Source: an uncultured Christensenella sp. (GTDB lineage: Bacteria > Bacillota > Clostridia > Christensenellales > CAG-917). Taken from it: a DNA stretch of 64,000 nucleotides. Shown in pieces: positions 1 to 15,353 of this stretch. Position 1 is the first letter of the stretch. Each line of letters starts with the position of its first letter. The stretch spans positions 15,446-79,445 of the forward strand of contig CAJTNO010000006.1 of assembly GCA_910577815.1 (NCBI GenBank), given 5' to 3'. A model generated the notes under the pieces. That model did not search any database. It was given only the letters and a program-made list of their open reading frames with translations, and had not been told where the DNA came from. A program made the position numbers and the translations under genes.

Positions 1-800
1 ATACGCAGATTATCGAGCGCAACGGCAAGCCCACCGTACCCGCCAACCCTACAAAGCCGAATTATGTATTTGTCGGCTGGTCTATTGACGGAACGAACAC
101 CGTCAACGTAAGCAATTACACCGTTACCGAAAACATAACATTTACGGCAATATTCCGTGTAGACAAATTCACGGTTACGTTCAAAAACGGCGATACTACG
201 GTAGCAACGCAAGAGGTGCAAAACGGCGGCTATGCAACTATGCCTACGTTCAACAGCGATACGTTTGTGGGCTGGACGGTTGACGGAAAAACGGTTGTAA
301 ATCTTTCAACCTACAAGATAACCGCAAACACGACTTTCACGGCAAAATTCGGAACTTGGACGCGCTTGGGCGACGATATGCTTTACGTTTACGGCGACAG
401 CACTATGAACAGCGTTGACATAGCGGTTAGCGGTCTGAAAGCGGGCGACAAAATCAAGATTACGGCGAACTATATCAAGGCGAATATACGCGACGACGGA
501 AACAACAGTTTTTGGTATAACTCGCCCGACGGCAACGGTTGCTACGGCTACGAATACGGCTATGACGGACAATGGCAACAACTGCAATACGAGGGCGACG
601 GCGGCAACGCTGGCGACAAAGAATTGACAAGCCTTGCGCCGTTCTCGGCAACGCTCGGACTTGTGGAATACGGAACGGAAAACACATTTACCATAACAAT
701 ATCTTGCAAACGCGACGGAATTTTGACTGTCGAGTGGTCGGACAATGCGGGTTTCTATATCGAGATGATGACAATGTGGGAATTGTACGTTATGAGATAA
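1..800 (+). CDS. Listeria-Bacteroides (Flg_new-type) repeat protein, 5'-partial; possible phage receptor-binding or tail-fibre protein
   Basis: Frame 3 has no stop from position 3 to 800, and the track start at 216 is an internal GTG. Two repeat units match the Flg_new pattern (…NYVFVGWSIDGTNTVNVSNYTVTENITFTAIF; …TFVGWTVDGKTVVNLSTYKITANTTFTAKF). A Gly/Tyr/Asp-rich C-terminal domain follows. Confidence 0.6.
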   Translation, partial: TQIIERNGKPTVPANPTKPNYVFVGWSIDGTNTVNVSNYTVTENITFTAIFRVDKFTVTFKNGDTTVATQEVQNGGYATMPTFNSDTFVGWTVDGKTVVNLSTYKITANTTFTAKFGTWTRLGDDMLYVYGDSTMNSVDIAVSGLKAGDKIKITANYIKANIRDDGNNSFWYNSPDGNGCYGYEYGYDGQWQQLQYEGDGGNAGDKELTSLAPFSATLGLVEYGTENTFTITISCKRDGILTVEWSDNAGFYIEMMTMWELYVMR

Positions 801-929
801 ACAAAGGCAAATCACAACTTAATTATAACGCTTGGGGTAAGCGCAAAAAGCCCCGCCATTAGCCGCTTAAAATGACGGTGCGCAACGTAGTTTACGGCGG
901 TGCAAAATAAACCTCAAAAGGAGCAAAAA

Positions 930-1295
930 ATGGAAAACTTAAACAAGGTAGTCAAGGAAATCAAGATTGTAGCAAAACCCTCGAAACGCGGCGGCAAAAA
1001 TCACTTCGTGCGCGTTGAACTCATTAACGGGCGTTCCGCAGACGTGTGGTGCGATAAAGAGGTCGTCGAACTCATTCAGACTTGCACGGAGTTGGGCGTT
1101 GAGCCTTTCAAGAGTTTTACTCTCGAAAAACGTACCAGTGAAAAGAACGGCGCGGAATATATCGCGGTTGTGCTTAAAATGTTCAACGACGACGAATACT
1201 TTTACTTTCTGCCCCGCGCAACAAATACCATTGTGGGATTGTTACTCGCAAAAGCCGCAAAGGACGAAACGCCCGCGACCGCGAAAAAGGCGTAA
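930..1295 (+). CDS. Hypothetical phage protein (121 aa from ATG 930)
   Basis: ORF 900..1295. The ATG at 930 is preceded by AAGGAG. No recognisable motif. Confidence 0.5.
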   Translation: MENLNKVVKEIKIVAKPSKRGGKNHFVRVELINGRSADVWCDKEVVELIQTCTELGVEPFKSFTLEKRTSEKNGAEYIAVVLKMFNDDEYFYFLPRATNTIVGLLLAKAAKDETPATAKKA

Positions 1296-1298
1296 TCT

Positions 1299-1730
1299 AT
1301 GGCAAACCCGAAAATACCGCAAGGCTATCAAGGAACATACGCCCGCGCCGCCGACGGCTCGGCAACTCTTATTATGGTGTCGCGTTCAGATAGCATAACG
1401 GACTATACCGAAAAAAAGGAGCATAAGCCTATGGCAAATCAACCCACGCAACAGCAAATGAATATGACGGACGGCGAACAGCCGCAAGCACGTTATACGC
1501 CTTATACTACCGAGCAGAAAAAGGAATACGCAAAGCAGTTTACCAAACGTGAAATTGCCTCGTACCGCAAAGGACAGCAAAGCGCATACGCGCATATGGG
1601 GAATATCGGCAAGCGCAATTCGTTTTTCATTTACAACAATCTGAAAAACGACGAGGCGGCAACGCCACCGCCCGCGCCGCCCGCCGACAGTAAACCCAAA
1701 GGCAACCGCCGCAATACGGGCAATAAATAA
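1299..1730 (+). CDS. Hypothetical phage protein (143 aa; alternative start 1431 with a better SD)
   Basis: ORF in the track. The internal ATG at 1431 is preceded by AAGGAG. Gln/Pro-rich with a basic C-terminus. Confidence 0.45.
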   Translation: MANPKIPQGYQGTYARAADGSATLIMVSRSDSITDYTEKKEHKPMANQPTQQQMNMTDGEQPQARYTPYTTEQKKEYAKQFTKREIASYRKGQQSAYAHMGNIGKRNSFFIYNNLKNDEAATPPPAPPADSKPKGNRRNTGNK

Positions 1731-1791
1731 CTAAATCTTACGAGGGAGCGGGCGTTTGTCCGTTCCCTTGTTTCTTTTTGCGGGGGTGCTT

Positions 1792-2667
1792 ATGGAAAAT
1801 AAAACGTATTATCTTACTTACGTTGTCGGGGAGCGCGGCGTAGGTAAAACAACATTATTAGCGCATTTTGCTTGCCGCTATATGATACCGCCGCTGTCCG
1901 TTTATGACCTATCTATTTGCAAAAAGGAAATTGAACGGCTGCGGGCTGGCGGCTGGAATAACCTTTCACTTGCGCCGCACATTCAACACCTTGTTTACGT
2001 TGTGGACGATACATTTATTGCGCGGGGGCTTGGGTATAAGCCGCGCGTTTCTATGGAATTGCAATTTGAACGAATAGGACTATACGACGGTGTTCACGAG
2101 GTTGATTATCTCTTGCCGTATGCAAAAATCTTTCTGCCCGAAATTCAAAGCAAATTAGACAGTAGAAAATCAATGACCGCCGAACGGGTTGCGGACTACT
2201 TTCTGCGTTATATCGAACGACAACGCAAGGTCGGCGTTCAGATGTGGGCTGACACGCAAATAGACGACAGCGCGGACAAACGCTTTCGTTCGCTTTCCGA
2301 TAAACTCATAGAGGTGCAGAACAAACGCGATTATTACGACCATTACGGGCGGCTTATTAAAACCGTATGGAACTGTTTGGAGTTTTCGGGCGTTCGGCAA
2401 TACGCCCGTTACAAGGACAGCGGCAACGCGAAAATAGGCGTTAAAACGGCATACGCGCACTACGGAAATATTTACGCTTGCGTTGACAGTTACAGCGGCA
2501 AAGAATATTTTTATTACGGTATGACGGGCAACTACCATACAACGCTTGCAACGCTCACGGGCAACGACAAGGCGGCTATGCTGGCGCGATGCGAACGCTA
2601 TCCGCTATTTAATCAGAACGAAAACAAGAACAATAACAGCGAGGTTACGGAACTATGGAAAAGTTAG
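1792..2667 (+). CDS. P-loop NTPase (291 aa from ATG 1792)
   Basis: Walker A GERGVGKTT lies near the N-terminus and a hydrophobic-DD stretch (LVYVVDD) is a candidate Walker B. No TM segment. The track start at 1756 is TTG. Confidence 0.55.
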   Translation: MENKTYYLTYVVGERGVGKTTLLAHFACRYMIPPLSVYDLSICKKEIERLRAGGWNNLSLAPHIQHLVYVVDDTFIARGLGYKPRVSMELQFERIGLYDGVHEVDYLLPYAKIFLPEIQSKLDSRKSMTAERVADYFLRYIERQRKVGVQMWADTQIDDSADKRFRSLSDKLIEVQNKRDYYDHYGRLIKTVWNCLEFSGVRQYARYKDSGNAKIGVKTAYAHYGNIYACVDSYSGKEYFYYGMTGNYHTTLATLTGNDKAAMLARCERYPLFNQNENKNNNSEVTELWKS

Positions 2668-2975
2668 ATTTTACGGAACTGCACAAAGAAAAGTTAGCGG
2701 TTATATTCGAGAATATAGACATACTCACGGCAATGAAAGAAAGCGACACGCAACTGCCGCCGCGCTTTTTTCGGGAAATTACGGACGACGTGATTTTGGA
2801 CTATAAAGCCAAAGTCGGCATACTCAACAAGAATACAAAGTTTGTAACAAAGGAACTTATAAAAGACTTTAAGTTACTGCGACGGGAACAGCGCAAGCGA
2901 CAAGCGGAACTACGCCGCCAGCGCAAGCGCGAAACGCTTTTATACGTTGCGCCCGCCGCGCTTATTCACTCATAA
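2655..2975 (+). CDS. Hypothetical phage protein with an Arg/Lys-rich C-terminus
   Basis: 106-aa ORF that overlaps the upstream stop by 13 nt, suggesting translational coupling. Confidence 0.45.
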   Translation: MEKLDFTELHKEKLAVIFENIDILTAMKESDTQLPPRFFREITDDVILDYKAKVGILNKNTKFVTKELIKDFKLLRREQRKRQAELRRQRKRETLLYVAPAALIHS

Positions 2976-2987
2976 TCAACACCGCAA

Positions 2988-3015
2988 CACACGGGCGGCG
3001 AACGCCGCCCGTGTG
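2988..3015 (+). repeat. Perfect GC-rich hairpin (13-bp arms) abutting the ori stem-loop
   Basis: CACACGGGCGGCG-AA-CGCCGCCCGTGTG. No T-tract follows. Confidence 0.8.
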
Positions 3016-3040
3016 CAGTAGGCTTACTATTACCCTACTG
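3016..3040 (+). other. Putative rolling-circle origin stem-loop with a CRESS-like nonanucleotide
   Basis: The stem is CAGTAGG/CCTACTG and the 11-nt loop is CTTACTATTAC. Loop positions 3025..3033 read TACTATTAC, against TAGTATTAC in circoviruses. It sits 48 nt upstream of the Rep ATG on the Rep-coding strand. Confidence 0.7.
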
Positions 3041-3046
3041 GCACTG

Positions 3047-3060
3047 CGGAACACGGAACA
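3047..3060 (+). repeat. Tandem heptamer iterons CGGAACA CGGAACA
   Basis: A perfect direct tandem repeat 6 nt 3' of the stem-loop. Circovirus Rep-binding iterons occupy the same relative position. Confidence 0.6.
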
Positions 3061-3087
3061 AGAATTTTGCATTATCGAGGTACATTT

Positions 3088-4290
3088 ATGGACGAAATCA
3101 CAAACAACAAAATAGCCGTCGAGGAAAGCCCCGCGCCCGTTACGACAATGAAAAAACGCTGGCTATTAACGATTAACAACCCGATATTTGCCGACAGCGG
3201 CTATACGGAAATTAACCCGTCTGACACCGATTTAGAGGTTAAAGAAAATCATTATGATTTGTCCGTATTGCAAGAGGACGAAAACAAAGATTTTTTCGAG
3301 TTTCGGTATATTCGATACGAGCAAGACGGAAACGCCGTTTTAATCAAACGCCCGTTTTTCAAAGACTTGGAGAGCATAGAAAAATACTTTAAGAATTTGA
3401 AAGATGTGGGCGGCTTGAAATATGCGGTGTATCAGTATGAACGGGGCGAAAACGGAACTCCGCACATACAAGGCTTTATTATCTACAAGAACAGCAAGCG
3501 TTTTGTAAATGTCAAACAAGACTTTCCGACGGCTCACATAATAGTACCGCGCGGGAGCAATTTGGAAAACCGCGACTATTGCACGAAAACCGATACGCGC
3601 ATAGCCCCGCCCGTTGAAATCGGGGAGTTTAGCGAAATGCGAACGCGCAACGATATAACGCAATTTTTCGAGGCGTTAAAACTCGGTGCTGACAACATAC
3701 TGCTGAAAAATATGTTTCCCGTTCTATACTCACAATACGGACCAGATAAAATAGAAAAGTTTAGACAAGACGAATTAAAAGCCGAATACGGAAAAAAGTT
3801 CCGCAATGTGATTGTAACATATATTTACGGAATACCCCGAACGGGCAAAACGACATACATTTACGACAATTACCCGATAGAAGATATATGCCGAATTGAC
3901 AACTACTTAAAAGGCACGTTCGAGGCATACGACCACCAAAGAATATTAGTGCTTGACGAGTTCACGGGAAAAATAGACTTGCCGTTTATGAATAACTTAT
4001 TAGACAAGTTCCCCGTTCAACTGCCCGCGCGGTTTTCAAATAGGACTGCGTGTTTCGAGCAAGTATTTATAATATCTAACTTGCCGCTTGATAGGCTCTA
4101 CAAGGACGAACAAAACACCGCGCGCGAGGTTTACAACGCTTTTATATCAAGAATACACAACATAATAAAATTTACGGCGTTGGGCGTGTGGCACTACGAA
4201 AAAAAGGACGGAAAACAAGTACCGCCGCCAAAGCAAGCCAAACTTTCCGATTTAGTACCGATAGAGGACGACGGCGACTTGCCGTTTTAA
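3088..4290 (+). CDS. rep: Rolling-circle replication initiator, circovirus-type HUH endonuclease fused to an SF3 helicase (CRESS-like Rep)
   Basis: Endonuclease motifs: I KRWLLTINNP, II GTPHIQGF, III DYCTKTD. Helicase motifs: Walker A GIPRTGKTT, Walker B ILVLDEF, motif C FIISN. By eye it aligns with porcine circovirus Rep (HKRWVFTLNNP / GRTPHLQGF / EYCSKEG). The ATG at 3088 is preceded by GAGG. Confidence 0.85.
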   Translation: MDEITNNKIAVEESPAPVTTMKKRWLLTINNPIFADSGYTEINPSDTDLEVKENHYDLSVLQEDENKDFFEFRYIRYEQDGNAVLIKRPFFKDLESIEKYFKNLKDVGGLKYAVYQYERGENGTPHIQGFIIYKNSKRFVNVKQDFPTAHIIVPRGSNLENRDYCTKTDTRIAPPVEIGEFSEMRTRNDITQFFEALKLGADNILLKNMFPVLYSQYGPDKIEKFRQDELKAEYGKKFRNVIVTYIYGIPRTGKTTYIYDNYPIEDICRIDNYLKGTFEAYDHQRILVLDEFTGKIDLPFMNNLLDKFPVQLPARFSNRTACFEQVFIISNLPLDRLYKDEQNTAREVYNAFISRIHNIIKFTALGVWHYEKKDGKQVPPPKQAKLSDLVPIEDDGDLPF

Positions 4291-4339
4291 GCACTTACGA
4301 AAAGAAAATATATTTAGGCGATAATAAGGAATTTCGTAT

Positions 4340-4525
4340 ATGCAAAACAATATGCCGCTCGGAATAACGGTTATATACTTTAACGACCAAAGCAAAAACA
4401 TTTACGCCAAACTGCCGCCCGATAAAGAGCAAGCAAAAAGGCTGTCAAAGCGTATTTATAAGGACGCTATGACAGCCATTGCAAGCGAACGGGCAAGCCG
4501 CGAGGGGTTAGCCCCTTGCGACTAA
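4340..4525 (+). CDS. Hypothetical small protein (61 aa)
   Basis: ORF with AAGGAA upstream; last + strand ORF of the module. Confidence 0.35.
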   Translation: MQNNMPLGITVIYFNDQSKNIYAKLPPDKEQAKRLSKRIYKDAMTAIASERASREGLAPCD

Positions 4526-4632
4526 CTGTTTGCCGTATAACGGGTAGTCCGACAACGGCAATTCCACCACGCAATAAAACTCACGCCGATTTACTTTGAA
4601 TATTTGGGTGTGCGTTTTTGTCGCTTTCAGTT

Positions 4633-4670
4633 CCACCACTCGAAAATGCACGTTAACATAACGTGCTTTT
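4633..4670 (+). repeat. Direct repeat copy 1, containing a terminator-like hairpin
   Basis: CCACCACTCGAAAATGCACGTTAACATAACGTGCTTTT. The hairpin is GCACGTTA-ACA-TAACGTGC (4648..4666) and is followed by a T-run. Confidence 0.75.
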
Positions 4671-4829
4671 CTTTTTTAAAAGCACAAATATGCCGCGCAC
4701 ATTTTCTCGTTGCTACCGCGCAAATGAATTTTTGCTATATACCAATGTGCCGTTGTAAACCCTCACTCCGTTTCGCAAATTCTTTTGCTTGGTGTGGCAT
4801 TGGCTTTTTTGTTGTCATAAGGCTAATAT

Positions 4830-4866
4830 CCGCCACTCAAAATGCACGTTAACATAACGTGCTTTT
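4830..4866 (+). repeat. Direct repeat copy 2, containing the identical hairpin
   Basis: CCGCCACTCAAAATGCACGTTAACATAACGTGCTTTT. The hairpin lies at 4844..4862 and is followed by T6. Confidence 0.75.
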
Positions 4867-5125
4867 TTGTTTTTATACATCATTTAAATTCTTTTTACGC
4901 CTGTAAACATCAAACTGAAAATTTCATATTATAAAGCGTTGTAACGACAATCCGACTTGCAGCGGCCTCTGTCGCGCAAACGGTTGCCGTTAAAACAGAT
5001 TAAACACAAAAATAAATTTATTGCTAAGCTTAAAGCACGCGCATAAGTCGCCGATACCATTTAAATATACCGCTATGGCTTTTGGTGTCTACTATATGCA
5101 TTAAATATATTTACAACGCAAAAAA

Positions 5126-5148
5126 ACGCACACTTATTGAGTGTGCGT
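5126..5148. terminator. Bidirectional intrinsic terminator between the convergent phage modules
   Basis: ACGCACACT-TATTG-AGTGTGCGT, flanked by an A-run upstream and a T-run downstream. Confidence 0.7.
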
Positions 5149-5196
5149 TTTTATTGCTTTTAGGCATTCTAAGCCAACAAATAATCTTATTGCCTA

Positions 5197-6228
5197 TCAA
5201 TAATACCTCTTTTCTCCGCCGCTCGACGAGGATTTAAGTGCGTTTAAAAGCTTGTCGTAATAAAGTCCTAAATAGTACTTCATATTAGGCGAAGCCGCAA
5301 GCGCGTCCGCCGCTATCTCGGGCGCAAGCGACGAATAGAAATTGAGCGCGATATTATATCGCTTTGCATAGTTATCCTGCTTCTCGCCCGTATATCCGTA
5401 CTTCTTTTCGTTCTCCTCCTGCTTCTTTATTGCCTCGAGCTTTTCTTCCTCGCGCTTTTCAAGATACTTTTCAATATCCGACTGGCGCTTGACCTGATAA
5501 TCCGCGTTCTGCTTACGCACCTGATTGTTGTAAGTTTCGTACTCCTTTACGGTCTTGTCCCTCTCCTTTTTAAGGTCCGCTATGCGCTCGTCAAGCTCCA
5601 TAGCGTATTTTAAGTCAAGCTCCTCGAGCGCGTTCGTTTTGTCGTTTTCAAGCCCCGCGATTTTGTTGTCAATCTCCGTCATCGAATTGTTAAACGAAGC
5701 CTGTAGCTGTCCCGCGCCTTCCATTCGCGCCGCGTCAAGGCTTCCGAGCTGCGTGGTCGCTATACTGCTGCGCGCAAGTCCGCGCTTCAAGACGTCGTTT
5801 TCCGTGCGCCTGCGCAGCTCGTCATACAGCTCGCTAAGCTTCTCGTAGCCCGATTTTAAATTCTCGGCAGCCTGTAGCCTGTTGCTCTCAATCTCGGATT
5901 TCTGCGTCTCGTACTTGCCCTCAAGCTTGTTTGCCGCCTGTTGCTTGTTTAAAGCGTTTTCCCTTTCCGCTCTCGAGGCTATATCCTCGTCGCTGTCCGC
6001 CTTGTATTCTATTTCCTTTAAGCCCAAATCGGTAGGAAACAGCGCGTCAAGGTCGGGTTCCTCCTCTTTAGGCAGAGAATCCTTGTACTGCTGCTCAAGC
6101 TCAGAAAGCCTGTCAAGTATCTCCTTCTCGCGCTCGAGCGCGTCCTTTATCTGATTCTGCTTTTCCTCCGCCTTTTCGGAATCCGTTTTAAACAAATCCT
6201 TAAATTCATCCCAAATGCTCTTTGCCAT
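5197..6228 (-). CDS. Coiled-coil phage structural protein (possible tail-needle or ejection-type protein)
   Basis: 343 aa, almost entirely charged heptad-like sequence. TAGGAGG precedes the ATG. It is the last gene of the morphogenesis operon, in the position that the coiled-coil gp26 holds in P22. Confidence 0.5.
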   Translation of the reverse strand: MAKSIWDEFKDLFKTDSEKAEEKQNQIKDALEREKEILDRLSELEQQYKDSLPKEEEPDLDALFPTDLGLKEIEYKADSDEDIASRAERENALNKQQAANKLEGKYETQKSEIESNRLQAAENLKSGYEKLSELYDELRRRTENDVLKRGLARSSIATTQLGSLDAARMEGAGQLQASFNNSMTEIDNKIAGLENDKTNALEELDLKYAMELDERIADLKKERDKTVKEYETYNNQVRKQNADYQVKRQSDIEKYLEKREEEKLEAIKKQEENEKKYGYTGEKQDNYAKRYNIALNFYSSLAPEIAADALAASPNMKYYLGLYYDKLLNALKSSSSGGEKRYY

Positions 6229-6236
6229 TTCGCCTC

Positions 6237-6350
6237 CTATGCGTTGTCGCTTACGCTCTTTGTCGCCGTCAGCTTAGCAAGCTTCACCTCAAGCGTCTTT
6301 ACCTTTACCACAAGCTCCTCGAGCGTTGACACTATTTCGTTTATGTTCAT
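6237..6350 (-). CDS. Small coiled-coil ORF (37 aa), absent from the ORF track
   Basis: Hand translation gives MNINEIVSTLEELVVKVKTLEVKLAKLTATKSVSDNA*. AGGAGG lies 4 nt before the ATG. The ORF fills the gap between two structural genes, and its TAG overlaps the SD of the next gene. Confidence 0.45.
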   Translation of the reverse strand: MNINEIVSTLEELVVKVKTLEVKLAKLTATKSVSDNA

Positions 6351-6358
6351 TTATCCTC

Positions 6359-7795
6359 CTATATCGCAAGCGTATCCACCGACACTATCAGCGGCGTTAC
6401 ATATGCGTGCTTCGCGGCGCAGGATATCTCAAAGCCTATCTTTCGTCCGCTTCGCTCCACGGGCACCGTTTTAAGCAGGTCGCTTCCCTTTACAGCATAC
6501 TCGTACGCCTTGCCGTCCAGCTTTACCGTAAGCATTATGTCGCTGTCCGTCTGTAGAGTCACGCTCCGCACCGTCTTTAGCGACGATGACGACAGCGCGC
6601 TTTCCGGGCTTATGTAGCTTTTTGCCGTTACCGCGCCCATTACCTCGCCGCTTCGGGACATCATTCCCAATGCGCCCTGGTTCTTGCTCTCGAATACGCA
6701 CAGCACCTGCGAGCCGTTATGTATCTTTATCGGTCGCAGTCTTTTTACCGAGTAGCCGTAAAGTATACACAGGGTTTTATCCTTTAATCCGTACCTTATC
6801 ACGGCGTTGTTTTTGGTTCCGCTGCCCTCGATTTTGCACGCCATATAATAGTAGTCGTCTATGTAAGCGCAGCTCATAAGATGCGTTCTCTCTATAGGCG
6901 GAAGCTGCTTGGCTATCCTGGTGACCTCGTAGCCGTCAAACGTAAAAAGTCCGTTGGTAGCGTAAAATATAATTTTATCGCCGCATACCTCAATCGAGTT
7001 TTTAACTATACGTCCCGTATCGGTAAACACCTTTTTCAGCATAAATTCGTTCTGCTCGCCGTATGCCGTCAGGCGGAATATCCCAAACTCGCGGAATACG
7101 TACAGGTAGTTTAAAAAGGACACAAGCTCCAACACCTCGCCGCATTCGTCCGCAAAGTTTATAAAGCCTGCCTCCGTTTCGCTGACGCTCCAGTTCTGCG
7201 GATTGAAGTCATCCGAAAACCAAATCTGATTCTGTACGCCGTTCATACAGCCGAACACCCTTTCGTTATGCACCTCTATCGACGTGAATTGCGGCGAGTC
7301 GCCCAGTATAAGCGGAGTGGTATCCTTTATCATATGAAGCTTCGCGTTCTTTGCTCCGAGCAGCAAAACGTCCTCGCCGTTATAGTTGTAGTTTACCGCC
7401 GTGACGTCCTGATTTATCATCAGCCCGGATAAGTCGTGCCACTCGTCCGTTTCATATGCCGCCGTATACATAAACTTGGCGTTTGTAAGGTGCGCTATAA
7501 GCTTATCCGCATACGTTCCGTCCGCGTTTTTGCGCCTGTATAAAAATACGTCCCTCAGCCTCTTGCCCGCAGGCAGCTCGGGATACGGGTGCCTCTCCAC
7601 GTACGGAGCGACGTAAAAGCCCTGCGCGGGGTCTATCCCTATTCCGCCCGTAAGCACTCCGTCCTCTATAACAAAGTTGTACGCCTGCTTTGCGTATGCC
7701 ATATCCAGTACGCTTTGGTCGGTATCCGTTACTATTCCCTTAAATCCTACCACTACCTTGGATTTGTTTACCCTGACGTCCTTCACGCACGCCAC
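6359..7795 (-). CDS. Phage structural protein, putative tail hub (P22 gp10-sized)
   Basis: 478 aa. Its start overlaps the stop of the upstream gene. Size and position match P22 gp10 (472 aa). I recognised no motif by eye. Confidence 0.45.
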   Translation of the reverse strand: MACVKDVRVNKSKVVVGFKGIVTDTDQSVLDMAYAKQAYNFVIEDGVLTGGIGIDPAQGFYVAPYVERHPYPELPAGKRLRDVFLYRRKNADGTYADKLIAHLTNAKFMYTAAYETDEWHDLSGLMINQDVTAVNYNYNGEDVLLLGAKNAKLHMIKDTTPLILGDSPQFTSIEVHNERVFGCMNGVQNQIWFSDDFNPQNWSVSETEAGFINFADECGEVLELVSFLNYLYVFREFGIFRLTAYGEQNEFMLKKVFTDTGRIVKNSIEVCGDKIIFYATNGLFTFDGYEVTRIAKQLPPIERTHLMSCAYIDDYYYMACKIEGSGTKNNAVIRYGLKDKTLCILYGYSVKRLRPIKIHNGSQVLCVFESKNQGALGMMSRSGEVMGAVTAKSYISPESALSSSSLKTVRSVTLQTDSDIMLTVKLDGKAYEYAVKGSDLLKTVPVERSGRKIGFEISCAAKHAYVTPLIVSVDTLAI

Positions 7796-8331
7796 CTCCT
7801 CTCCTTAAGGCGCAGACTCCTTCCCTTGTATTTCATAAGTCCGAGCTTGCTCCTGAACGACGTGTCAAAGCTCTTTGCCAAATCAAATACCTTGTTTGCA
7901 AAATAGTACTCCGCAAGCGTGCCGTCGCTCAGCGCCGACTGCGTGAGCCTTACGTCGTTTATACTGCTGTTTATGGATATAGGCATAGGCGGAGTATATG
8001 CGTATTCCAATATCGCTTCTCCGCTGAAATCCGCCGTCAGTCTGTTGGGATACGTCTTGAATGCCACCGTTTCGTCTCCGCGCTTCAGTCGTATCGGATA
8101 CAGTATGGATTTTCCAAGCTTGCTTATCATAAGCTGTCCGTCGCTGAATACTACGTTCTCCTCGGTAGTGAGCGGCAGATATTCGCAGATTATCTCTCTA
8201 TAGGCAATGTTCATCGCGCCGAGCAAGGAATTTATAAGCTCCTGCTCTCCCTCGCTGAACGTCTCATTATGTGAAAAATCCGCAAGTCCCATCTTCAAAA
8301 GACATTCGCTTATTACGTTTTTTGCGGTCAT
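7783..8331 (-). CDS. Phage head-to-tail adaptor candidate (P22 gp4-sized)
   Basis: 182 aa, translationally coupled on both sides, lying downstream of the capsid gene. Confidence 0.4.
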   Translation of the reverse strand: MTAKNVISECLLKMGLADFSHNETFSEGEQELINSLLGAMNIAYREIICEYLPLTTEENVVFSDGQLMISKLGKSILYPIRLKRGDETVAFKTYPNRLTADFSGEAILEYAYTPPMPISINSSINDVRLTQSALSDGTLAEYYFANKVFDLAKSFDTSFRSKLGLMKYKGRSLRLKERRWRA

Positions 8332-8639
8332 ATTGCTTTTTCCACCTCCGTCAAAATCCTTTCGCGCGTGCGCTTCTCCTTAGCCGCCTCCAAATCGCCG
8401 TTGTGCTTATCCATTTCCTTTACAAGGCGGTCCGCATACTCGAGTCGCGTGCTTCTTACAAGCTCCAGCGTACGCGCGTCAAGTCTGTCGAAGGGTGCCG
8501 CGAGCTGCAGCACCCCGTTTGCGTGTATTTCAAACCTGTTAAGCTTAAGATTGCGGTATAATCGGTAGCGCGAGTCTATCTCCCGCAATCTGTGCGCTAT
8601 ATCAAACAAATCCTCCCGGATTTCTCTGAGCCAGTCCAT
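8328..8639 (-). CDS. Hypothetical phage head-completion protein (103 aa from ATG 8639)
   Basis: Track ORF 8328..8723 overlaps the capsid gene by 77 nt. The internal start MDWLREIRED at 8639 lies just after the capsid stop. Confidence 0.4.
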   Translation of the reverse strand: MDWLREIREDLFDIAHRLREIDSRYRLYRNLKLNRFEIHANGVLQLAAPFDRLDARTLELVRSTRLEYADRLVKEMDKHNGDLEAAKEKRTRERILTEVEKAI

Positions 8640-8646
8640 ATCGGAT

Positions 8647-9849
8647 TTACTCGACGTCCGCGGCGGCTTCGGTCGCGGTTTTACCCGTAAAAGTGAGCTT
8701 GGCTTGGGCCATCGGACGTTCACATAACATATCCGCGTACTTCACTAAGGTCGCGCTGTAGCAAGCCTTGCCCGGCACCTGATGAAGCACGCTTCCGCTC
8801 TCGCCCTCGAGCCAGCGCCAGTCGCAAAGCTGATGGAGCTTGAAGTCCGCGCTGTTAAGCAGATACATATCTCCGTCCGCAACAAATCTGTCCGCGACGA
8901 AGGGAATTCCCGAATAGGACAACGCCTTATAACCGCCGTCCAGAGTGAGGTAATCCACGTTGGTACGCGTCTGAGAGAGATGCTCTACGTACTGTTTTCT
9001 TACATTATATGAAGCTACGATAAAGTCGACAGCTCCGCCGGACGTTCCCTCTATGGAGTCGATTGCGTCCTGTATTGCGGTTACCGTAACCTTGCCGTCC
9101 ACCGTGTTGGTGTAAGGAGTAAGGAAGGAATAATCCTTTCTCTTAAGACCGTAAATGGTTTCGCTCTGTCCGAAAATTGCCTCGAGTCCCGTAATTTCGT
9201 TGTTTTTCGAACCCTGTACGTAAAGCTTGCAGCCTGCTTCTATCTTCGCGCCCGCGCTGAGGCTGAGCGTTACAATCCTGGACGCCCTGTCAATGGTGAG
9301 AATGCGCGCGCCGGATACCGTCGCGTCCTTTGTGCCGTCCGCCTTATAAACGTCAACGGTCATACCCTCCATAAGAGCCTTGATGCTATCGACCGTAATC
9401 TGATTGTTTGCGTTGCCCGAATTGGCTACCGTGGTGGCAATCAGACCGGAGCCGTCGCCGTAAAGCATACGTCCGAAATTGAATTTACTCGCCTTAAGCA
9501 AGCCGTCCATTTCGGCGTTAAGGAGATTTACAAATGCTCCCGCGCTGTTCTGAGAGGCGCGTATAGCCTTGTCGCTGAGTTCGATTTTTCCGAAAAGGTT
9601 TTTAAGAGTGAGCGTAAATTGCGCATAGTTGTTGCTTCCGCTTGCGGGAAGATTGTCGCATTCCTCGCCAGAGCCTATTCCGCCGTTAATTCCGTAGGGA
9701 GCAAGCTTTTTGACCTCCTTGCCCCAGACGTCCGCGGAGGTCTGTCCAATTTTAGCCAGCAGAGGGTTTACGCCCACGTTGAGCTGGTCGGCGAGTACGC
9801 CGAGATAAAAGGTTTTTAAAGCCTTATCTGCATTAGAAAGTGTTACCAT
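8647..9849 (-). CDS. Major capsid protein
   Basis: 400 aa, immediately downstream of the scaffold gene, in the usual portal-scaffold-capsid order. Confidence 0.7.
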   Translation of the reverse strand: MVTLSNADKALKTFYLGVLADQLNVGVNPLLAKIGQTSADVWGKEVKKLAPYGINGGIGSGEECDNLPASGSNNYAQFTLTLKNLFGKIELSDKAIRASQNSAGAFVNLLNAEMDGLLKASKFNFGRMLYGDGSGLIATTVANSGNANNQITVDSIKALMEGMTVDVYKADGTKDATVSGARILTIDRASRIVTLSLSAGAKIEAGCKLYVQGSKNNEITGLEAIFGQSETIYGLKRKDYSFLTPYTNTVDGKVTVTAIQDAIDSIEGTSGGAVDFIVASYNVRKQYVEHLSQTRTNVDYLTLDGGYKALSYSGIPFVADRFVADGDMYLLNSADFKLHQLCDWRWLEGESGSVLHQVPGKACYSATLVKYADMLCERPMAQAKLTFTGKTATEAAADVE

Positions 9850-9863
9850 AAATTTTCTCCTGT

Positions 9864-10553
9864 TTATTTATTGTTTTTCAAGAACATAAAGCCGGCTTCT
9901 TCTATGGTTTTCGGCTTGACCTTGGGCGCGACGCACTGCATACCGCCGCCTCGGAGGGTATAGGGAGGCACTCCCTTACGCACCCCGTCGAGATAGCTTT
10001 CGATTATTGCGTTCCGCACCTCCTCGGAGCTGAAAACATAGTCGTTTAAAAATTGTCCGTCGGATATCAGCTGCTCGGGAGTACGGAATTTATCCGTAAG
10101 CACCTTAAGAAGCGCGACGTTGAGACAGTTTTCGTCCTCTCGAAGCTCCGGATTGTTGAGCAGCTCGTTTGCTATATCCTTCGCAAACGCTTTGGCGGCG
10201 GGAATCTCGTTAAAGAATTTATCCACCGCAAGCTTGAAATCGCCCTCGTCCTTTAAGGAACGCTTTCCGCTCTCAAGCTCCTTGAGCCTTTGCGAGCGGC
10301 GCGTAAATTCCTTTTCGAGCTCTCCGTACGCGCGCAGCAATTCCTGCGGGTTTTTAAATTTGCCTATTTTCTGTTCGTTGATATCGTTATCGGCGTGCTG
10401 CGGCGCGTTATCTCCGCCGCCTTCGCCGTTATTTGTGTTTTCTACGTCGACTTCTCCGCTTGCGCCGTCCGTCGTCTGTGCTTCCCCGCACTCGAGGCAA
10501 GCCTTTATTTTATCGTTTTCATTCTGCTTGGCATCATCAAATATTTTCGCCAT
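9864..10553 (-). CDS. Scaffolding protein
   Basis: 229 aa with an acidic, Gly-rich N-terminus and a helical charged core (ELLRAYGELEKEFTRRSQRLKELE). It lies between portal and capsid. Confidence 0.6.
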   Translation of the reverse strand: MAKIFDDAKQNENDKIKACLECGEAQTTDGASGEVDVENTNNGEGGGDNAPQHADNDINEQKIGKFKNPQELLRAYGELEKEFTRRSQRLKELESGKRSLKDEGDFKLAVDKFFNEIPAAKAFAKDIANELLNNPELREDENCLNVALLKVLTDKFRTPEQLISDGQFLNDYVFSSEEVRNAIIESYLDGVRKGVPPYTLRGGGMQCVAPKVKPKTIEEAGFMFLKNNK

Positions 10554-12423
10554 CCGTATTTTCCTCCGCTAATTTCCTTTCGAGCTCGTTTACTCCGCCG
10601 TTAAGTCCCGCAAGCTGAGTATGCAGCGCAATATGATTTGCAACTCTGTCGCGAAGCTCCTTATTCTTTACGCACCTTGCGGACACGCACATTTTGATAT
10701 GCTCGCCTATATGCAGGGTGTGGTTGTCATAAACGTCGGGTATAATGTCCTCGCGCGAGAAATCCATATTCTCCTTAAGCGCCTTCTTGCGATGAACCTC
10801 ATCCGAGCTTCTGCCCGCCTCCCAGTTGCCGAAGCCGAGTATCTCAAACAGCTTGGTCTTTGTTGCTTCGGGCATCTTTCCGTCGTTGTCGGTGAACAGT
10901 CCCAACCTCAACAGGTCGTACACCATAGCGCGGCGCGCGGACAGCGTGTCGTCTATATCGCTTATCGTATCGAATACGATGTCCTCGCTGTCGATGTTCT
11001 TTGCCGAGAACGAGGCAAGCTCCACCTCTCCGTTTTCGCCCGTAATGCGCTTGACGCGCGGAATCTTTGCGTACTGCCTGTAAAGCCTCAGTATCTGCTT
11101 GCTTATTCTCTTTACGCTTTCGCGCAGGCTGTCGGCTGTCAGCGATATACGCGTATCGTCCTGCTCGAGCAACAGAGAAATTGCGGTTCCCGACGCTACG
11201 TTGGACGGCACCTGCGAATAGGTAGTCACCTCGCTTACGCCGCTTATCATTACAAACTCGTTAAGCAGCTTTTCCTCCTCTCTTGAAAACTCGGAGGGTA
11301 CCTGAGTGGGATTAAGCATAATCGGCGGAGTTCCGCCCTGTCTGTACACAACAATTTTTCCGGGAGGCAAGCCCTCCTCCTCGAGCGCGTCGGTATCCAC
11401 CGAGCCGTCCTCCACTGCGAGAACGCCCACGGCAATTCTGTTCATATATTCGTGTTTTCTGTTCTTTACGGTGTTATAAGCGCGCTGTACGGGGATGATA
11501 CGCTCCACCACGCAGGAGCCGAAGAAGTTGGACAGATTGTCTATACAGGTCTGCCTTGCAAACGGATATTCGCGCGAGCCGTCCTCGCCGTTGAGATACG
11601 GAAGCTCCCCGAGATGCAACAAAGTATCTCCCGCAACGATGATTAGTCTGCCGTTCGGATAATCGGGAGTAGGTTTTTCATACTTCTCTATAACGGTAAC
11701 GCTGTTCTCCCTCTTTTCGCTTACTATCTTAGGCAGCGCCGCGGAGTAGCCGAAGCCGCCCGCTACCTGAACGCTGTCAAAGGAAAACACGTTCACCTCG
11801 CCGCCTTTGACGTCCTTATTCCAAAGCCTCTTTACTTCGTCGACGGTAAGCACCTTTGCGTGCATAATGGACGTCTGCTTTTCAAGGTCGGTAATCGCAA
11901 TATCCTCCGGGAAAATCTCAAACGGCGGACAAAGCGTTATATTTACGTCGCCCTCCTTAACCAGCCCCTCGGAATCAAGCAGCTTGCCCTTGTCCGCGTC
12001 CCAGGTAATTTTAAAGAAGGCGCTGCCCGTTATCTCGCTCCAGGTATTTGCCATAGACAGCTGAGAGGAAAAATCGTTTTCCTTACAAACCGCGTCTATC
12101 AGCTTAGTGGCAAGCGACGCGGAAGCTACGTCATCATCGTCGGACGTCGCGGGGCGCACCGTTCCCATCGCCTTCACGCGCGACAGCTTTGCAAGGCGCG
12201 TTTCCAGTATGGGAGCGATGTGGTTATAAACCTCCCTCTGCTGCCAGTAGAACTGTTTGCCTCCGTCAACGATATCGCCCTTCGGCGAAATTTCCGCAAA
12301 CTGATTGCCCATTACGAAATTCATATTCAGCCTCCAGTTCAGCTCTACGGGGCGCCGCGCTTCCTGCCGCTTTTTAAAGTCGGCTGTAACCTGCGACACA
12401 AGTTGCTTTTCAAATTCAGTCAT
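10537..12423 (-). CDS. Portal protein
   Basis: 628 aa, positioned between TerL and the scaffold gene; typical portal size. Confidence 0.7.
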   Translation of the reverse strand: MTEFEKQLVSQVTADFKKRQEARRPVELNWRLNMNFVMGNQFAEISPKGDIVDGGKQFYWQQREVYNHIAPILETRLAKLSRVKAMGTVRPATSDDDDVASASLATKLIDAVCKENDFSSQLSMANTWSEITGSAFFKITWDADKGKLLDSEGLVKEGDVNITLCPPFEIFPEDIAITDLEKQTSIMHAKVLTVDEVKRLWNKDVKGGEVNVFSFDSVQVAGGFGYSAALPKIVSEKRENSVTVIEKYEKPTPDYPNGRLIIVAGDTLLHLGELPYLNGEDGSREYPFARQTCIDNLSNFFGSCVVERIIPVQRAYNTVKNRKHEYMNRIAVGVLAVEDGSVDTDALEEEGLPPGKIVVYRQGGTPPIMLNPTQVPSEFSREEEKLLNEFVMISGVSEVTTYSQVPSNVASGTAISLLLEQDDTRISLTADSLRESVKRISKQILRLYRQYAKIPRVKRITGENGEVELASFSAKNIDSEDIVFDTISDIDDTLSARRAMVYDLLRLGLFTDNDGKMPEATKTKLFEILGFGNWEAGRSSDEVHRKKALKENMDFSREDIIPDVYDNHTLHIGEHIKMCVSARCVKNKELRDRVANHIALHTQLAGLNGGVNELERKLAEENTDGENI

Positions 12424-12541
12424 TTTACACTCCTTTGCTTATATAGGACGGCATCGCTTACGCGCAGCCGTCCGATTTTTAACTTAAATAAGGTAAATTT
12501 TAAATACGCGCCTTATCCTATTTGCGTTTCAATTTAAATTT

Positions 12542-12841
12542 TTACAAGTTTAGATTATCGTTTTTAAGTACGGGAGCTTTATATTCGTCTCTAAGCGCCG
12601 CAAGCAGTCTGTCCCTTTCTCTTTCAAGCTCCTCGTCTGTAAAATCCTCCGCCTTTCTCTCTCCGTTCAGTTCGATATAGGCTTTAAGCGCTCCGCTGTC
12701 GGGAGGACAGTACTTTTCGGTTACCTTGCGCTTGGTGAGCGCTATTTCTCCGTCCTCCTTTACGGAGTATTCCTCCTGCACCTCTTTATACGAATAACCC
12801 TTAGCCTTCTTCAGCAATCCGCTCAACAATTCTTTATCCAT
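12542..12841 (-). CDS. Hypothetical protein (weak resemblance to the C-terminal segment of a small terminase)
   Basis: 99 aa, overlapping the TerL stop by 19 nt. The stretch KRKVTEKYCPPDSGALKAYIELNG recalls the PPD segment of some TerS proteins. The evidence is weak. Confidence 0.3.
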   Translation of the reverse strand: MDKELLSGLLKKAKGYSYKEVQEEYSVKEDGEIALTKRKVTEKYCPPDSGALKAYIELNGERKAEDFTDEELERERDRLLAALRDEYKAPVLKNDNLNL

Positions 12842-14262
12842 CTCTCATTCCTTCTCACACTGCGGATAAGCCTCTCCTTATCCGTCTGAATTTCGGACTT
12901 GGGCGGCAACGGAACAGGCGCGGGCTTTGGCTGAGTCATAACAAAGTATCTCAGCTCATCCAGCGCGTGGTCGTCCGTTTTCTTAGGTCTGTCGCCCTTG
13001 CCCCACCAATAGGACTTTATTTCCCTTATCAGATTAACGCAATTTGAAAATATATAAATTCTCGGAGGTCTTTGCTCAAACAAGGACTTTATCCGCTGTA
13101 TTCCGCTATACAAATCCTTGTTTACGTCGGTATTGACCAATATACCCTTTTCACAGAACAGCTCCGCCACGCTCTTTTCCGCGGCTAAGGTACGCTGATT
13201 TGCCGCGCTGTCAATTAGCGCGTGCAGTCTGCCCTTAGCATCCCTGTGCCAGCCGAGCCTGTCCGCAATTTCAAATATCTTGCGCACGTGATAATCCACG
13301 TTCTGTCCCGCCTCGAAGTGTTCGTCTATTACGTAAATCACCCCGTCGTAATCAACCGCATAAAAGTGACAGCTTGTCGGATTTGCAAGTCCCGGGTCTA
13401 TGGATATATTCGCATACCACTCCTTCGGCACGTCAAAGGGTTTTATCAAATGGACGTTTTGATCAAATTCGGGATATACCAAGCCCTCGCCGCTTGAGAA
13501 TTTTCCAAACCGTCTTGACAGCTGCTCGCTTTTCGGAATAACCGTTTCCATCGCCTTGACCTCGTTTTTATCGAGATACGGGTTATCCTTCCACTCCATA
13601 TATTCGCACCACACCTCGGGGTCGTCGTTACAGTTCAATTCTATTTCGTCGTACACCCAGGTAAGCCCCTTAAGCGGAGTCATCGTTCCGAAAATATCTC
13701 CGCAGCGGTCGAATACGCGCATACGGCACTCGTCATAAATGTCCTTAGGCGGCTCCTCGTCAAACCATACGAAGTCCAACGATACGCCCTGAAACTTTTC
13801 CCGCCCCTGGTCGCAGGACTTAAAGCCTATTCTGCTAAGTCCTCCAAACGCGTTCTTAACGATAATGTAATCGATAATTCCGTACTCGGGAGAGGTTTGC
13901 TTTCCCTCTCGCATCACCACGTCCGAAATGTATCTCGGCGAGAGGTATTTGAGTATTTTGGCTTGAGCCACGTCTCTCTGCACCTGCTGAGACAGACTGA
14001 CTACCCATCCCGAAACGCCGTTTTTGTTTTCGCGAAACGGATGTATTCCTCTTGCAAGCCACACGCTTTCCACCGCTCCGCACTCGGTTTTACCGGAGCG
14101 GTTGCCCCCGAATACCCAGCGGTTGCGCCTGTCGCATTTATGAAACGCCATCTGCTTTTGATGCACCGAGCGAGTATTGTAGTTAGCAAGCGCGTCGCAT
14201 TTGCGGTTTTCTATTTCGCGTTCGATTTTCAGGAGTCTTAAAAGCGTATCGTTGTCCTTCAT
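12823..14262 (-). CDS. terL: Terminase large subunit
   Basis: Walker A GGNRSGKTECG, a Walker B-like FVWFDEEP, and a long C-terminal nuclease-sized domain. The track ORF starts at TTG 14298; ATG 14262 is more likely. Confidence 0.8.
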   Translation of the reverse strand: MKDNDTLLRLLKIEREIENRKCDALANYNTRSVHQKQMAFHKCDRRNRWVFGGNRSGKTECGAVESVWLARGIHPFRENKNGVSGWVVSLSQQVQRDVAQAKILKYLSPRYISDVVMREGKQTSPEYGIIDYIIVKNAFGGLSRIGFKSCDQGREKFQGVSLDFVWFDEEPPKDIYDECRMRVFDRCGDIFGTMTPLKGLTWVYDEIELNCNDDPEVWCEYMEWKDNPYLDKNEVKAMETVIPKSEQLSRRFGKFSSGEGLVYPEFDQNVHLIKPFDVPKEWYANISIDPGLANPTSCHFYAVDYDGVIYVIDEHFEAGQNVDYHVRKIFEIADRLGWHRDAKGRLHALIDSAANQRTLAAEKSVAELFCEKGILVNTDVNKDLYSGIQRIKSLFEQRPPRIYIFSNCVNLIREIKSYWWGKGDRPKKTDDHALDELRYFVMTQPKPAPVPLPPKSEIQTDKERLIRSVRRNERWIKNC

Positions 14263-14398
14263 AGCCCGAGAATAAGCCCGTAGAATACCAAAAAACAAAA
14301 ATTTATGCCAATAAAATAACAGGAATTACAAAAAATAACGCGGAAAATGGCTTGAAAGACTTTTAATTTGTCAAGTATTATAGTATTATTATTCTACT

Positions 14399-15331
14399 AT
14401 GAAAAAATCTGTTATAAAATTTTCATCAGTGATATTTGTTTGCTTCCTGATTCTGGCGGCAGGCTCTATGATATTTATTCCAAGCGAAATAGCTACGGCG
14501 GACAGCACCGTAGAGGTCATAGAAGCCGCAGTAAGCAATTTGGAAAGCAACGCAACCGCAGGCAAATCGGCTCTTAAAATAGTTTCTCCTACAAACGATA
14601 AGGCAATCTATATTCCCGAAAGCTACTTTTTACAATACGAAGGCATATACGCGGGCGACATACACAAGGTAACTTACGCAGGCGAAACCTTTTATTATCA
14701 GGGCGAGCCTACTCTGAAACAAATTACGGTAGCCGACGACGAGCTGCTTTCTCCCGACGTAACGCTGAAGTTAAAGGAGGGAGCTGACGTTAAAATTGGC
14801 ATCTTTCAATTAACCGACGAATACACGATTAAATTTTTAGGGTTTAACGAAACGGGTACCGAGATATATGTATCCGCCATTCGCGACGGCAACTCCCCTA
14901 TTCTTAACTTTATACCTGCCGACTGTGTAGAGACATTTACAATCCCCTATCAACGCAAGGCGCAGATTGCCCGCGACGAATTGCTTGCATCAAAAGAAGA
15001 CCCGCCTGTAATTGACGGCGGAAATTTTACTTCAAATACCTCGGTTGGTCTCAGAATAGTAATTATTATAGGAATAGCAATCCCTGCAATACTGATAGTG
15101 ATACTGCTTTTCAAGCCGTCCAAAAACGAGCGCAGATACTCCAAAAATTCTGTGCGCAGCGGACGCGGCAGAGATGATTTCGACTATGACGATTCCCGTT
15201 CCTACAGGCGCAGAGAGCGCGACGAAAGGGACGAGCGCGATTATGACAGACGGGATGACAGAGATTATCGAAGCGACCGTCGCGACGACCGCGACTATGA
15301 CAGGCGGTATGATGACCGTGATTACAGATAA
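14399..15331 (+). CDS. Membrane-anchored exported protein with an Arg/Asp-rich cytoplasmic tail
   Basis: N-terminal signal/TM segment (VIFVCFLILAAGSMIF) and a single TM (LRIVIIIGIAIPAILIVILLF). The tail reads …RRRERDERDERDYDRRDDRDYRSDRRDDRDYDRRYDDRDYR. Confidence 0.6.
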   Translation: MKKSVIKFSSVIFVCFLILAAGSMIFIPSEIATADSTVEVIEAAVSNLESNATAGKSALKIVSPTNDKAIYIPESYFLQYEGIYAGDIHKVTYAGETFYYQGEPTLKQITVADDELLSPDVTLKLKEGADVKIGIFQLTDEYTIKFLGFNETGTEIYVSAIRDGNSPILNFIPADCVETFTIPYQRKAQIARDELLASKEDPPVIDGGNFTSNTSVGLRIVIIIGIAIPAILIVILLFKPSKNERRYSKNSVRSGRGRDDFDYDDSRSYRRRERDERDERDYDRRDDRDYRSDRRDDRDYDRRYDDRDYR

Positions 15332-15353
15332 AGTCTAAACATAAAACAAGCGA

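Follow-up and report, generated by a model that had tools for sequence, protein, structure and literature searches.

We found that positions 2988-4290 of a 64,000-nucleotide stretch of DNA from an uncultured Christensenella sp. (contig CAJTNO010000006.1, hereafter the window) very probably form a true circovirus/nanovirus-type module for rolling-circle replication, which belongs to a separate integrative element and not to the tailed phage whose head genes lie beside it. The module consists of an origin of replication (ori) with a stem-loop, a nonamer and tandem repeats, followed on the same strand by the gene of a replication initiator (Rep) that joins an HUH endonuclease to a superfamily 3 (SF3) helicase, as do the Reps of the single-stranded DNA viruses whose genome is circular and encodes a Rep (CRESS viruses). 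A first, sequence-only reading of the window had described a GC-rich hairpin, the stem-loop, the nonamer, tandem heptamers and the Rep open reading frame (ORF), and we recovered every one of them at the positions listed in Table 1. The six Rep motifs that it had named, KRWLLTINNP, GTPHIQGF, DYCTKTD, GIPRTGKTT, ILVLDEF and FIISN, are likewise all present in the Rep translation.

Table 1. Features of the Rep element and of the adjacent head-gene block, in window coordinates.
Feature	Position	Strand	Remarks
724-aa protein, 3' part	3-800	+	gene truncated at the left edge of the window; 100% identity in tblastn to the complete L011 gene
p121	930-1295	+	conserved small protein; syntenic in relatives
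p143	1299-1730	+	conserved low-complexity basic protein; syntenic in relatives
Zot/pI-like P-loop ATPase, 291 aa	1792-2667	+	ATG at 1792; ORF opens at TTG 1756
p106	2655-2975	+	small conserved protein directly upstream of the ori; syntenic with Rep down to 56% Rep identity
GC-rich hairpin	2988-3015	+	arms CACACGGGCGGCG and CGCCGCCCGTGTG, 13 nt complementary, AA between them; abuts the ori stem-loop
ori stem-loop	3016-3040	+	stem CAGTAGG (3016-3022) / CCTACTG (3034-3040); loop CTTACTATTAC (3023-3033, 11 nt)
Nonamer TACTATTAC	3025-3033	+	in the loop; predicted nick between T3031 and A3032
Predicted iterons	3042-3060	+	CACTG spacer (3042-3046), then tandem heptamers CGGAACA-CGGAACA (3047-3060)
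Rep, 400 aa	3088-4290	+	ATG at 3088, stop ends at 4290; HUH endonuclease and SF3 helicase
Acidic C-terminal tip of Rep, EDDGDLPF	4264-4287	+	residues 393-400; resembles the C-terminal tip of bacterial single-stranded DNA-binding protein (SSB)
p61	4340-4525	+	small protein, last gene of the element; follows Rep in all close relatives
Right terminus of the Rep element	4626-4638	+	GTCGCT, then TTCAGTTCCACCA, at whose last base the element ends
Podovirus-like prophage head block	4829-14298	-	Pfam and PHROG matches; outside the replicon
DUF7934 protein	5197-6228	-	head block
Virion protein	6359-7795	-	head block
Major head protein	8647-9849	-	head block
Portal	10537-12423	-	head block
Large terminase subunit (TerL)	12823-14298	-	head block

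The origin and its initiator

Within the 64 kb, a loop of 8-13 nt that ends in TATTAC and is closed by a perfect stem of at least 7 bp occurs once on the two strands together, at the ori itself, and Markov shuffles of the window gave an expectation of 0.025 such stem-loops per window. Folded as single-stranded DNA, positions 2980-3066 reach -27 kcal/mol, compared with -11.7 ± 2.2 kcal/mol for shuffled versions (z = -7.0), and none of 200 shuffles equaled the native value. Past a one-base bulge the pairing of the window stem is prolonged by GTG/CAC, in agreement with the 10-bp stems of its relatives.

We compared the regions upstream of rep in 18 relatives, from genomes and metagenomes, that share 50-97% Rep identity with the window. 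The same succession of GC hairpin, stem of 7-14 bp with a 10-11 nt loop, CACTG and two tandem heptamers was found in 14 of the 18, and the final six loop bases before the 3' arm are TATTAC in these relatives (TACTAC in one). Eight different stems were seen, with compensatory changes: CAGTAGG, CAGTGGG, GTGCCGGAGG, GCCGGTAGG, GTGCCGGTAG, GTGACGGTAG, GCAGTGACATAAGG and ACAGGAGG. Covariation was judged from hairpin calls made sequence by sequence, without formal pair counting, because differences in loop length and bulges shift the stems out of register in the MAFFT alignment. The heptamers vary by lineage (CGGAACA, CGTCGCG, CGATACA, CGTAACN and TGTAACC) and keep a constant position and 7-nt period, as expected of Rep-specific iterons; the CGGAACA copies of the window are predicted to be those bound by Rep. 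At 30-38% Rep identity, in relatives that include contigs from the human gut, 5-9 kb contigs of IMG/VR and two inoviruses from GenBank, the loop carries the canonical (T/C/A)AGTATTAC nonamer (TAGTATTAC-type; xAGTATTAC), followed again by tandem repeats. The origin proposed from the window alone is thus borne out in relatives down to 30% Rep identity, with a covarying stem and with the TATTAC loop end and tandem repeats kept, and this sequence conservation marks stem-loop, nonamer and iterons as a real conserved origin of circovirus-like layout.

The GC hairpin is also kept in relatives by compensatory changes. Its loop is often of the GCGAAGC type, which forms an unusually stable DNA mini-hairpin, and in one relative (L120) the hairpin is located inside the nonamer loop. 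No T-run follows it, so that it is not a typical terminator. In one contig (L003), homology to the window starts within this hairpin, at position 2993.

The nick position given in Table 1 is predicted from circovirus and nanovirus biochemistry together with a deletion junction in contig L115. Here p106 is gone, as is the ori's 5' half, so that the ATPase gene runs into ...CTATT/AC-CTACCGGCACTG (L115 6730-6770), and the junction, CTATT/AC, falls exactly at the position of the predicted nick. A pseudo-site at which Rep terminated aberrantly would explain such a junction, as could microhomology by itself. Two inovirus-like IMG/VR contigs carry two stem-loop/nonamer/iteron origins each, 5.6-5.7 kb apart (L055, at 195 and 5939; L056, at 570 and 6145), which could reflect concatemeric assemblies or two genuine origins.

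The rep ATG lies 7 nt behind a GAGGT ribosome-binding site. In the translation, the nuclease motifs TINNP (residues 28-32), HIQ (126-128) and YCTK (164-167) stand in order, with Walker A at residues 248-255, Walker B at 287-292 and motif C at 328-331 of the helicase. In an alignment of 37 homologues T28, N30, H126, Q128, Y164 and K167 of the nuclease and G248, G253, K254, E291, S330 and N331 of the helicase are invariant, and the catalytic and nucleotide-binding residues proved equally invariant in a second alignment of 21 homologues. Of the two Pfam families suggested by the sequence-only reading, Viral_Rep (PF02407) was matched well above its cut-off (E 4e-16, 59.3 bits against 26), whereas RNA_helicase (PF00910) scored 17.3 bits, under the cut-off of 21.5, a shortfall that counts against the assignment, although a PF00910 match is precomputed for many homologues of Rep. 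Among solved structures, those nearest in sequence come from a nanovirus and a circovirus: the Rep nuclease of faba bean necrotic yellows virus (6h8o, E 1.5e-10; 2hwt, E about 1e-10) and the Rep of porcine circovirus 2 (PCV2), of which chain 7lar aligns to residues 113-338, across both domains. Together with the Viral_Rep score, these matches identify Rep by homology as a CRESS-type HUH+SF3 initiator, as had been proposed. In the PHROGs collection the only match was to a small terminase (E 0.006), and we rejected it as spurious.

To place Rep among the bacterial groups, we searched it by BLASTP against a reference set taken from the supplement of PMC6668415 (two pCRESS2, two pCRESS3 and one pCRESS1 sequences). 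The pCRESS2 sequences came first (33-38% identity, best E 4e-52), followed by pCRESS3 (1e-34), GasCSV (5e-24) and pCRESS1 (1e-13), and the window Rep may accordingly be called pCRESS2-like as far as its sequence goes. Motifs I and II are separated by about 95 residues, and both the Pfam and the pCRESS2 alignments start only at about residue 105.

A second trait of Rep is its acidic C-terminal tip. The bacterial SSB tip, DDDIPF or DDDLPF, is the docking site for replication and repair proteins, PriA, RecQ/RecJ and DnaE among them. The Rep subfamily ends in (D/E)(L/I/M)PF; among the 120 homologues listed, 36 end in [LIMV]PF and others in DDIF or LDIF. The resemblance suggests a link of Rep to the bacterial replisome. 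The same tail is also found on homologues in which a PF01719 nuclease stands in place of PF02407 and is joined to the same helicase, which suggests domain swapping. In genomes that bear the element, another HUH+SF3 Rep of a different kind is often encoded close by (L006 20717-21203; L020 4115-4630; L130 360-1229); the one in L006, about 9.5 kb downstream, combines PF01719 Rep_OBD with RNA_helicase.

Based on these features, initiation can be pictured as follows. Rep would bind both CGGAACA repeats beside the stem-loop, the stem-loop would be extruded, and Tyr164 of the YCTK motif would cut the + strand within the nonamer (TACTATT^AC). The nick would offer a 3'-OH to a host polymerase while Rep remained on the 5' end, and the C-terminal SF3 helicase would unwind the duplex. 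After one round, the nonamer would be restored, and Rep would cut and rejoin the strand there. Through its acidic DLPF tip, Rep probably attracts one of the host proteins for which SSB is the usual docking partner.

The boundary with the tailed-phage block

The element is widespread in mouse-gut Christensenellales, and an exact-sequence look-up returned its Rep in more than 1500 blocks of the collection. Alignments of the window to 18 other contigs end at the right terminus, most of them through TTCAGTTCCACCA (4638) and those of the L003 type 13 nt sooner (4625). Beyond it lie at least 12 unrelated right flanks, 11 of which are joined at the same nucleotide and the L003 type 13 nt earlier. Contigs L003-L009 are identical to the window (or 96% identical) up to 4625-4643, where the similarity stops, and contain no terminase or portal gene. 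A Rep of 100% identity with the same upstream genes was found without phage genes in L003-L009, L020-L027 and L109.

The converse also holds, as the head block occurs at 99% identity without Rep in L010, L013, L015 and L017, whose homology starts from window position 4829 or 4933. A look-up of DUF7934 revealed that the block from TerL to DUF7934 occupies a fixed chromosomal site beside a P-II gene and has three continuations. One, in L010, comprises Fic, YqaJ, DUF1351, RecT, Lin1244_N, SSB and two DNA methylases; another, at 12.5-21 kb in L013 and L015, comprises Fic, a 2123-aa protein, a diversity-generating retroelement (DGR; RVT_1 reverse transcriptase and bAvd) and a serine recombinase; and the third, shared by L011, L012, L014, L016 and the window, is the Rep element in inverted orientation. 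In the window the two blocks meet sharply between 4638 and 4829. Since each is found alone and the terminus of the Rep element is shared and sharp, we conclude that two mobile blocks adjoin at this point and that the phage does not have Rep as its replication module. The Rep and head blocks are inherited independently.

These observations bear on the proposal with which the window had first been interpreted, namely that Rep and ori replicate the terminase- and portal-encoding phage and that rolling-circle concatemers are delivered to TerL, as happens with gpA in P2. The adjacency of Rep and head block in the window and in L011, L012, L014 and L016 speaks for it, as does the lack of visible replication genes in the window's own phage block. 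It is set against the common terminus with its many flanks, the many contigs in which the Rep block stands without any phage gene, and the nearly identical head blocks that lack Rep, which are continued in L010 by genes of their own (YqaJ, RecT, Lin1244_N and SSB) and in L013 and L015 by the DGR and serine recombinase; nor do any of the diverged relatives of the element have head genes nearby. We consider the proposal very improbable. A circovirus-type replicon that drives a tailed phage would have been remarkable, and it does not hold. The element could nevertheless have been inserted within a larger prophage whose remaining genes lie left of the window; alternatively, the phage block beside it may be a remnant. 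Also very improbable is a phage satellite that parasitizes the capsids of its neighbor: the element adjoins a head-gene block, is small and has replication and integration genes of its own, but most copies lie away from the phage block, no small terminase, capsid-remodeling or cos/pac-like feature was seen, and the element encodes its own morphogenesis-type ATPase.

A 48-bp direct repeat flanks a 150-bp stretch at the junction (4632-4678 and 4829-4876) and contains a terminator-like hairpin, GCACGTTAACATAACGTGC, with a T-run. We rejected it as a general att site, as it is confined to contigs in which the phage block lies alongside (the window has two copies, L014-L017 have one) and absent from other Rep-element ends. 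In L028 nothing more than a fragment of a recombinase adjoins the right end of the element, too little to establish a circular junction. A megablast search of window positions 1-15500 against GenBank phages gave no match, whereas a 315-kb contig (ena:ERZ27269789:k119_107222) is identical to the window over positions 1-16000.

In L003 (12055-20008), and also in L007 and L009, the Rep element is followed by genes for 1979-aa, 177-aa and 480-aa proteins and then by an IS3-type transposase. The 480-aa protein has a weak match to DUF2971, and no other family matches were obtained for this block, which in L003 is bracketed by an 84-bp repeat (11544-11627 and 20014-20097). The 1979-aa protein of these three contigs was considered as a counterpart of the phage 2123-aa protein and rejected, as the two show no similarity. 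The chromosomal part of the window contains large ORFs at 35720-40423 (1567 aa), 41302-45996 (1564 aa), 48825-52241 (1138 aa) and 60663-63983 (1106 aa), and a tRNA-Glu(CTC) at 35406-35481.

The Zot-like ATPase and the nature of the element

The element is integrative and about 9-13 kb in size, with Rep and ori as its last functional block. Its gene order runs from a large serine recombinase on the far left through variable cargo, a sigma-like regulator (resembling sigma-70 region 4), a small helix-turn-helix protein and proteins of 435, 175 and 724 aa to p121, p143, the ATPase, p106, the ori, Rep and p61. Synteny persists at 49-67% Rep identity, in relatives that are all devoid of head genes. 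Its hosts, known from metagenome-assembled genomes, are Christensenellales/Borkfalkiaceae of the mouse gut, and distant relatives were found in other metagenomes and in the human gut.

The 435-, 175- and 724-aa proteins are membrane-anchored, with one N-terminal hydrophobic segment each; in the 724-aa protein this segment is accompanied by a coiled coil and by Flg_new repeats (Pfam Flg_new E 2e-27 for the full protein). An AlphaFold2 model of p121 (predicted local distance difference test, pLDDT, 84) has a repeated beta-beta-beta-alpha fold, and its best Protein Data Bank (PDB) match, Pur-alpha at E 0.05, is not significant, so that p121 is at most a candidate for a gene-V-like single-stranded DNA-binding protein (SSB). 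No recognizable SSB was found in the element by Pfam, PHROG or the p121 structure search. For p143, Pfam returned no match and PHROG only the weak phrog_12487 (E 0.0011, function unknown); p106 had no family match in the Pfam or PHROG searches, and none was obtained for p61. An Rfam scan returned tRNA only, and PADLOC detected nothing significant in Rep or the ATPase (for the ATPase only a P-loop match, E 0.0034).

A 1.17-kb insertion between Rep and p61 in L021 (8829-9917), seen also in L023 and L027, codes for an anti-phage nuclease of the Shedu type (SduA; E 3e-131 in PADLOC, with both SduA_N and SduA_C matched in Pfam). The last residues of this nuclease are NDDDLPF, which gives the element another tail resembling the SSB tip.

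The ATPase is 291-303 aa long across the element family. Its AlphaFold model (pLDDT 73) was searched against the PDB with Foldseek, and the top match was 2r2a, in which the N-terminal domain of Zot was solved for a filamentous prophage of Neisseria (E 2.4e-8, TMt 0.59), with the E-values of the runners-up more than three orders of magnitude weaker. Against BFVD, the top named matches were Inoviridae Zot proteins, along with one protein from Acholeplasma phage L2. Zot genes are also encoded on those contigs of 5-10 kb, from IMG/VR and GenBank, that carry the nearest Rep relatives, and hhalign of the ATPase family against the Zot-like proteins of these inovirus contigs gave a probability of 97.1% (E 5e-11). 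Profile and model comparisons thus indicate that the ATPase is homologous to Zot, and the Zot genes beside the nearest Rep relatives, together with the profile match, show that Reps of this type have long been partnered by Zot-type ATPases.

Because the Zot-type ATPase is tied to this Rep type in distant relatives, GenBank inoviruses among them, an inovirus-related, non-tailed temperate element is likelier than a simple plasmid, and we put it at about an even chance, with virion formation as a prediction. Three results weigh against it and leave it moderately supported: none of 22 ATPase family members matches Pfam Zot, generic P-loop families being all that was returned; the ATPase has no transmembrane segment, which the inovirus pI criteria of PMC6813254 require; and no small hydrophobic coat-like ORF was found among those of at least 25 aa with an ATG start on the coding strand of the element, where only the 435-, 175- and 724-aa proteins have a hydrophobic segment. 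The lack of a coat-like ORF speaks for a virionless plasmid, integrated and of pCRESS2 kind, in which Rep would maintain or amplify the circle once it is excised, while partition, exclusion or other plasmid functions would fall to the ATPase and the membrane proteins. PMC6668415 classes such elements as integrated plasmids with no known viral structural proteins, and variable cargo, with a Shedu defense gene in some copies, agrees with that view. The ATPase, however, is homologous to the inovirus morphogenesis ATPase and not to the FtsK-like ATPases of pCRESS1-3 elements, and in virus collections the closest relatives of Rep belong to Zot-encoding genomes of 5-10 kb, so that we see the plasmid as a possible but somewhat doubtful explanation. 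Less probable still is an integrative mobilizable element (IME) that borrows a conjugative pore, with Rep as relaxase and the stem-loop as oriT, after the Rel_PF02407 elements of streptococci. HUH nicking chemistry is identical for replication and transfer, an integrase (the serine recombinase) is present, and PMC5357655 lists PF02407 proteins as a putative IME relaxase family. That role is only assumed from context there, however, it is in replication initiators that iterons and an SF3 helicase are typically seen, and we detected no TcpA/FtsK/VirD4-type coupling protein, the sole ATPase matching Zot, RecA and viral packaging ATPases and no coupling proteins.

Within the inovirus-related interpretation, the element might tentatively be regarded as a lineage, so far unclassified, of temperate viruses without tails that infect gut Clostridia. 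Such a lineage would, if it exists, perhaps be characterized by an anchorless Zot-type ATPase, by three membrane-anchored proteins replacing the small helical coat, by integration through a serine recombinase and by a complete circovirus-type Rep and ori, fitted to bacteria through an SSB-tip mimic. It would then be the viral equivalent, among prokaryotes, of those plasmids from which the CRESS replication module has been proposed to descend, and the whole cis/trans design of the origin, beyond Rep, would be older than the eukaryotic viruses.

Independently of that question, the bacterial relatives of CRESS Reps retain the entire origin grammar of circoviruses and nanoviruses from 97% to about 30% Rep identity, including in Zot-encoding inovirus-like genomes, and this adds weight, as far as cis elements are concerned, to the plasmid/phage-to-CRESS-virus link. 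What is new is modest: the conservation of this grammar in bacterial elements, the SSB-like tip of Rep, and an element family that pairs Rep with a Zot-type ATPase and has no recognizable coat protein. The predicted nick sites and pairs of iterons with their Reps could be used for tests or for HUH-tag engineering.

Comparison with known systems

Integrated elements with a CRESS-like Rep are already known. Kazlauskas, Varsani, Koonin and Krupovic described in 2019 nine bacterial HUH+SF3 Rep groups (pCRESS1-9), nearly all in site-specifically integrated elements (PMC6668415), and Roux et al. reported in the same year an inovirus Rep family with a superfamily 3 helicase (S3H) domain, iPF_00203 (PMC6813254); the premise of novelty behind the sequence-only reading was therefore outdated. 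Coluzzi et al. had treated PF02407 proteins as putative relaxases of streptococcal IMEs in 2017 (PMC5357655).

P2 gpA is also an HUH nicking initiator of rolling-circle replication, but it has two catalytic tyrosines and no SF3 helicase and belongs to another HUH cluster, and the Rep described here lies outside the tailed phage. The Rel_PF02407 IMEs (PMC5357655) likewise encode a PF02407 protein in an integrated element with a recombinase; the window element differs in having no coupling protein, and a relaxase role is putative in both. Members of Cressdnaviricota are circular single-stranded DNA viruses of about 2-6 kb with a capsid gene, whereas the present element spans 9-13 kb, is integrated, and yielded no capsid homologue in Pfam or PHROG searches.

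The elements of pCRESS2 share with the window element the order of HUH and SF3 domains, HxQ in motif II, the Asn of motif C and the Walker B glutamate (LDEF here), as well as a Firmicutes host and site-specific chromosomal integration. Their gene set comprises a tyrosine integrase, an FtsK-like ATPase and an SSB (PMC6668415); in the window element the recombinase is of the serine type, the ATPase is Zot-like, three membrane-anchored proteins are present, and no SSB is recognizable. The window Rep is further distinguished by about 70 extra residues between motifs I and II and by its SSB-like tip. For pCRESS2 elements, PMC6668415 does not describe the origin ("nonanucleotide" occurs 0 times), and we found no literature description of a nonamer/iteron origin in these bacterial elements, although a search of this kind cannot prove absence.

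In its origin the element resembles circoviruses and nanoviruses. Stem-loop, iterons and rep follow one another on the strand that codes for rep, TATTAC closes the loop, the 3' arm is directly followed by short tandem repeats, and the Rep nuclease is homologous (6h8o, 2hw0, 7lar). The nonamer TACTATTAC of the window departs from TAGTATTAC by G to C at position 3, whereas the distant relatives have TAGTATTAC itself. Heptamer repeats and the extra conserved GC hairpin upstream also set the window origin apart, as do the size of the replicon (about 10 kb), its integrated and bacterial character and the lack of a jelly-roll capsid gene.

Finally, the HUH+S3H inoviruses (iPF_00203; "bajarodino virus" PQ006121 and PQ006165) differ from the element in that its ATPase lacks a transmembrane segment and a Pfam Zot match, no small helical coat protein was found in it, and large membrane-anchored proteins and a sigma-like regulator are present. 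They resemble it in a Rep of 32-35% identity (E 1e-32 to 1e-36), in an ori of the same type and in a homologous Zot-like ATPase encoded nearby, in their case on genomes of 5-10 kb.

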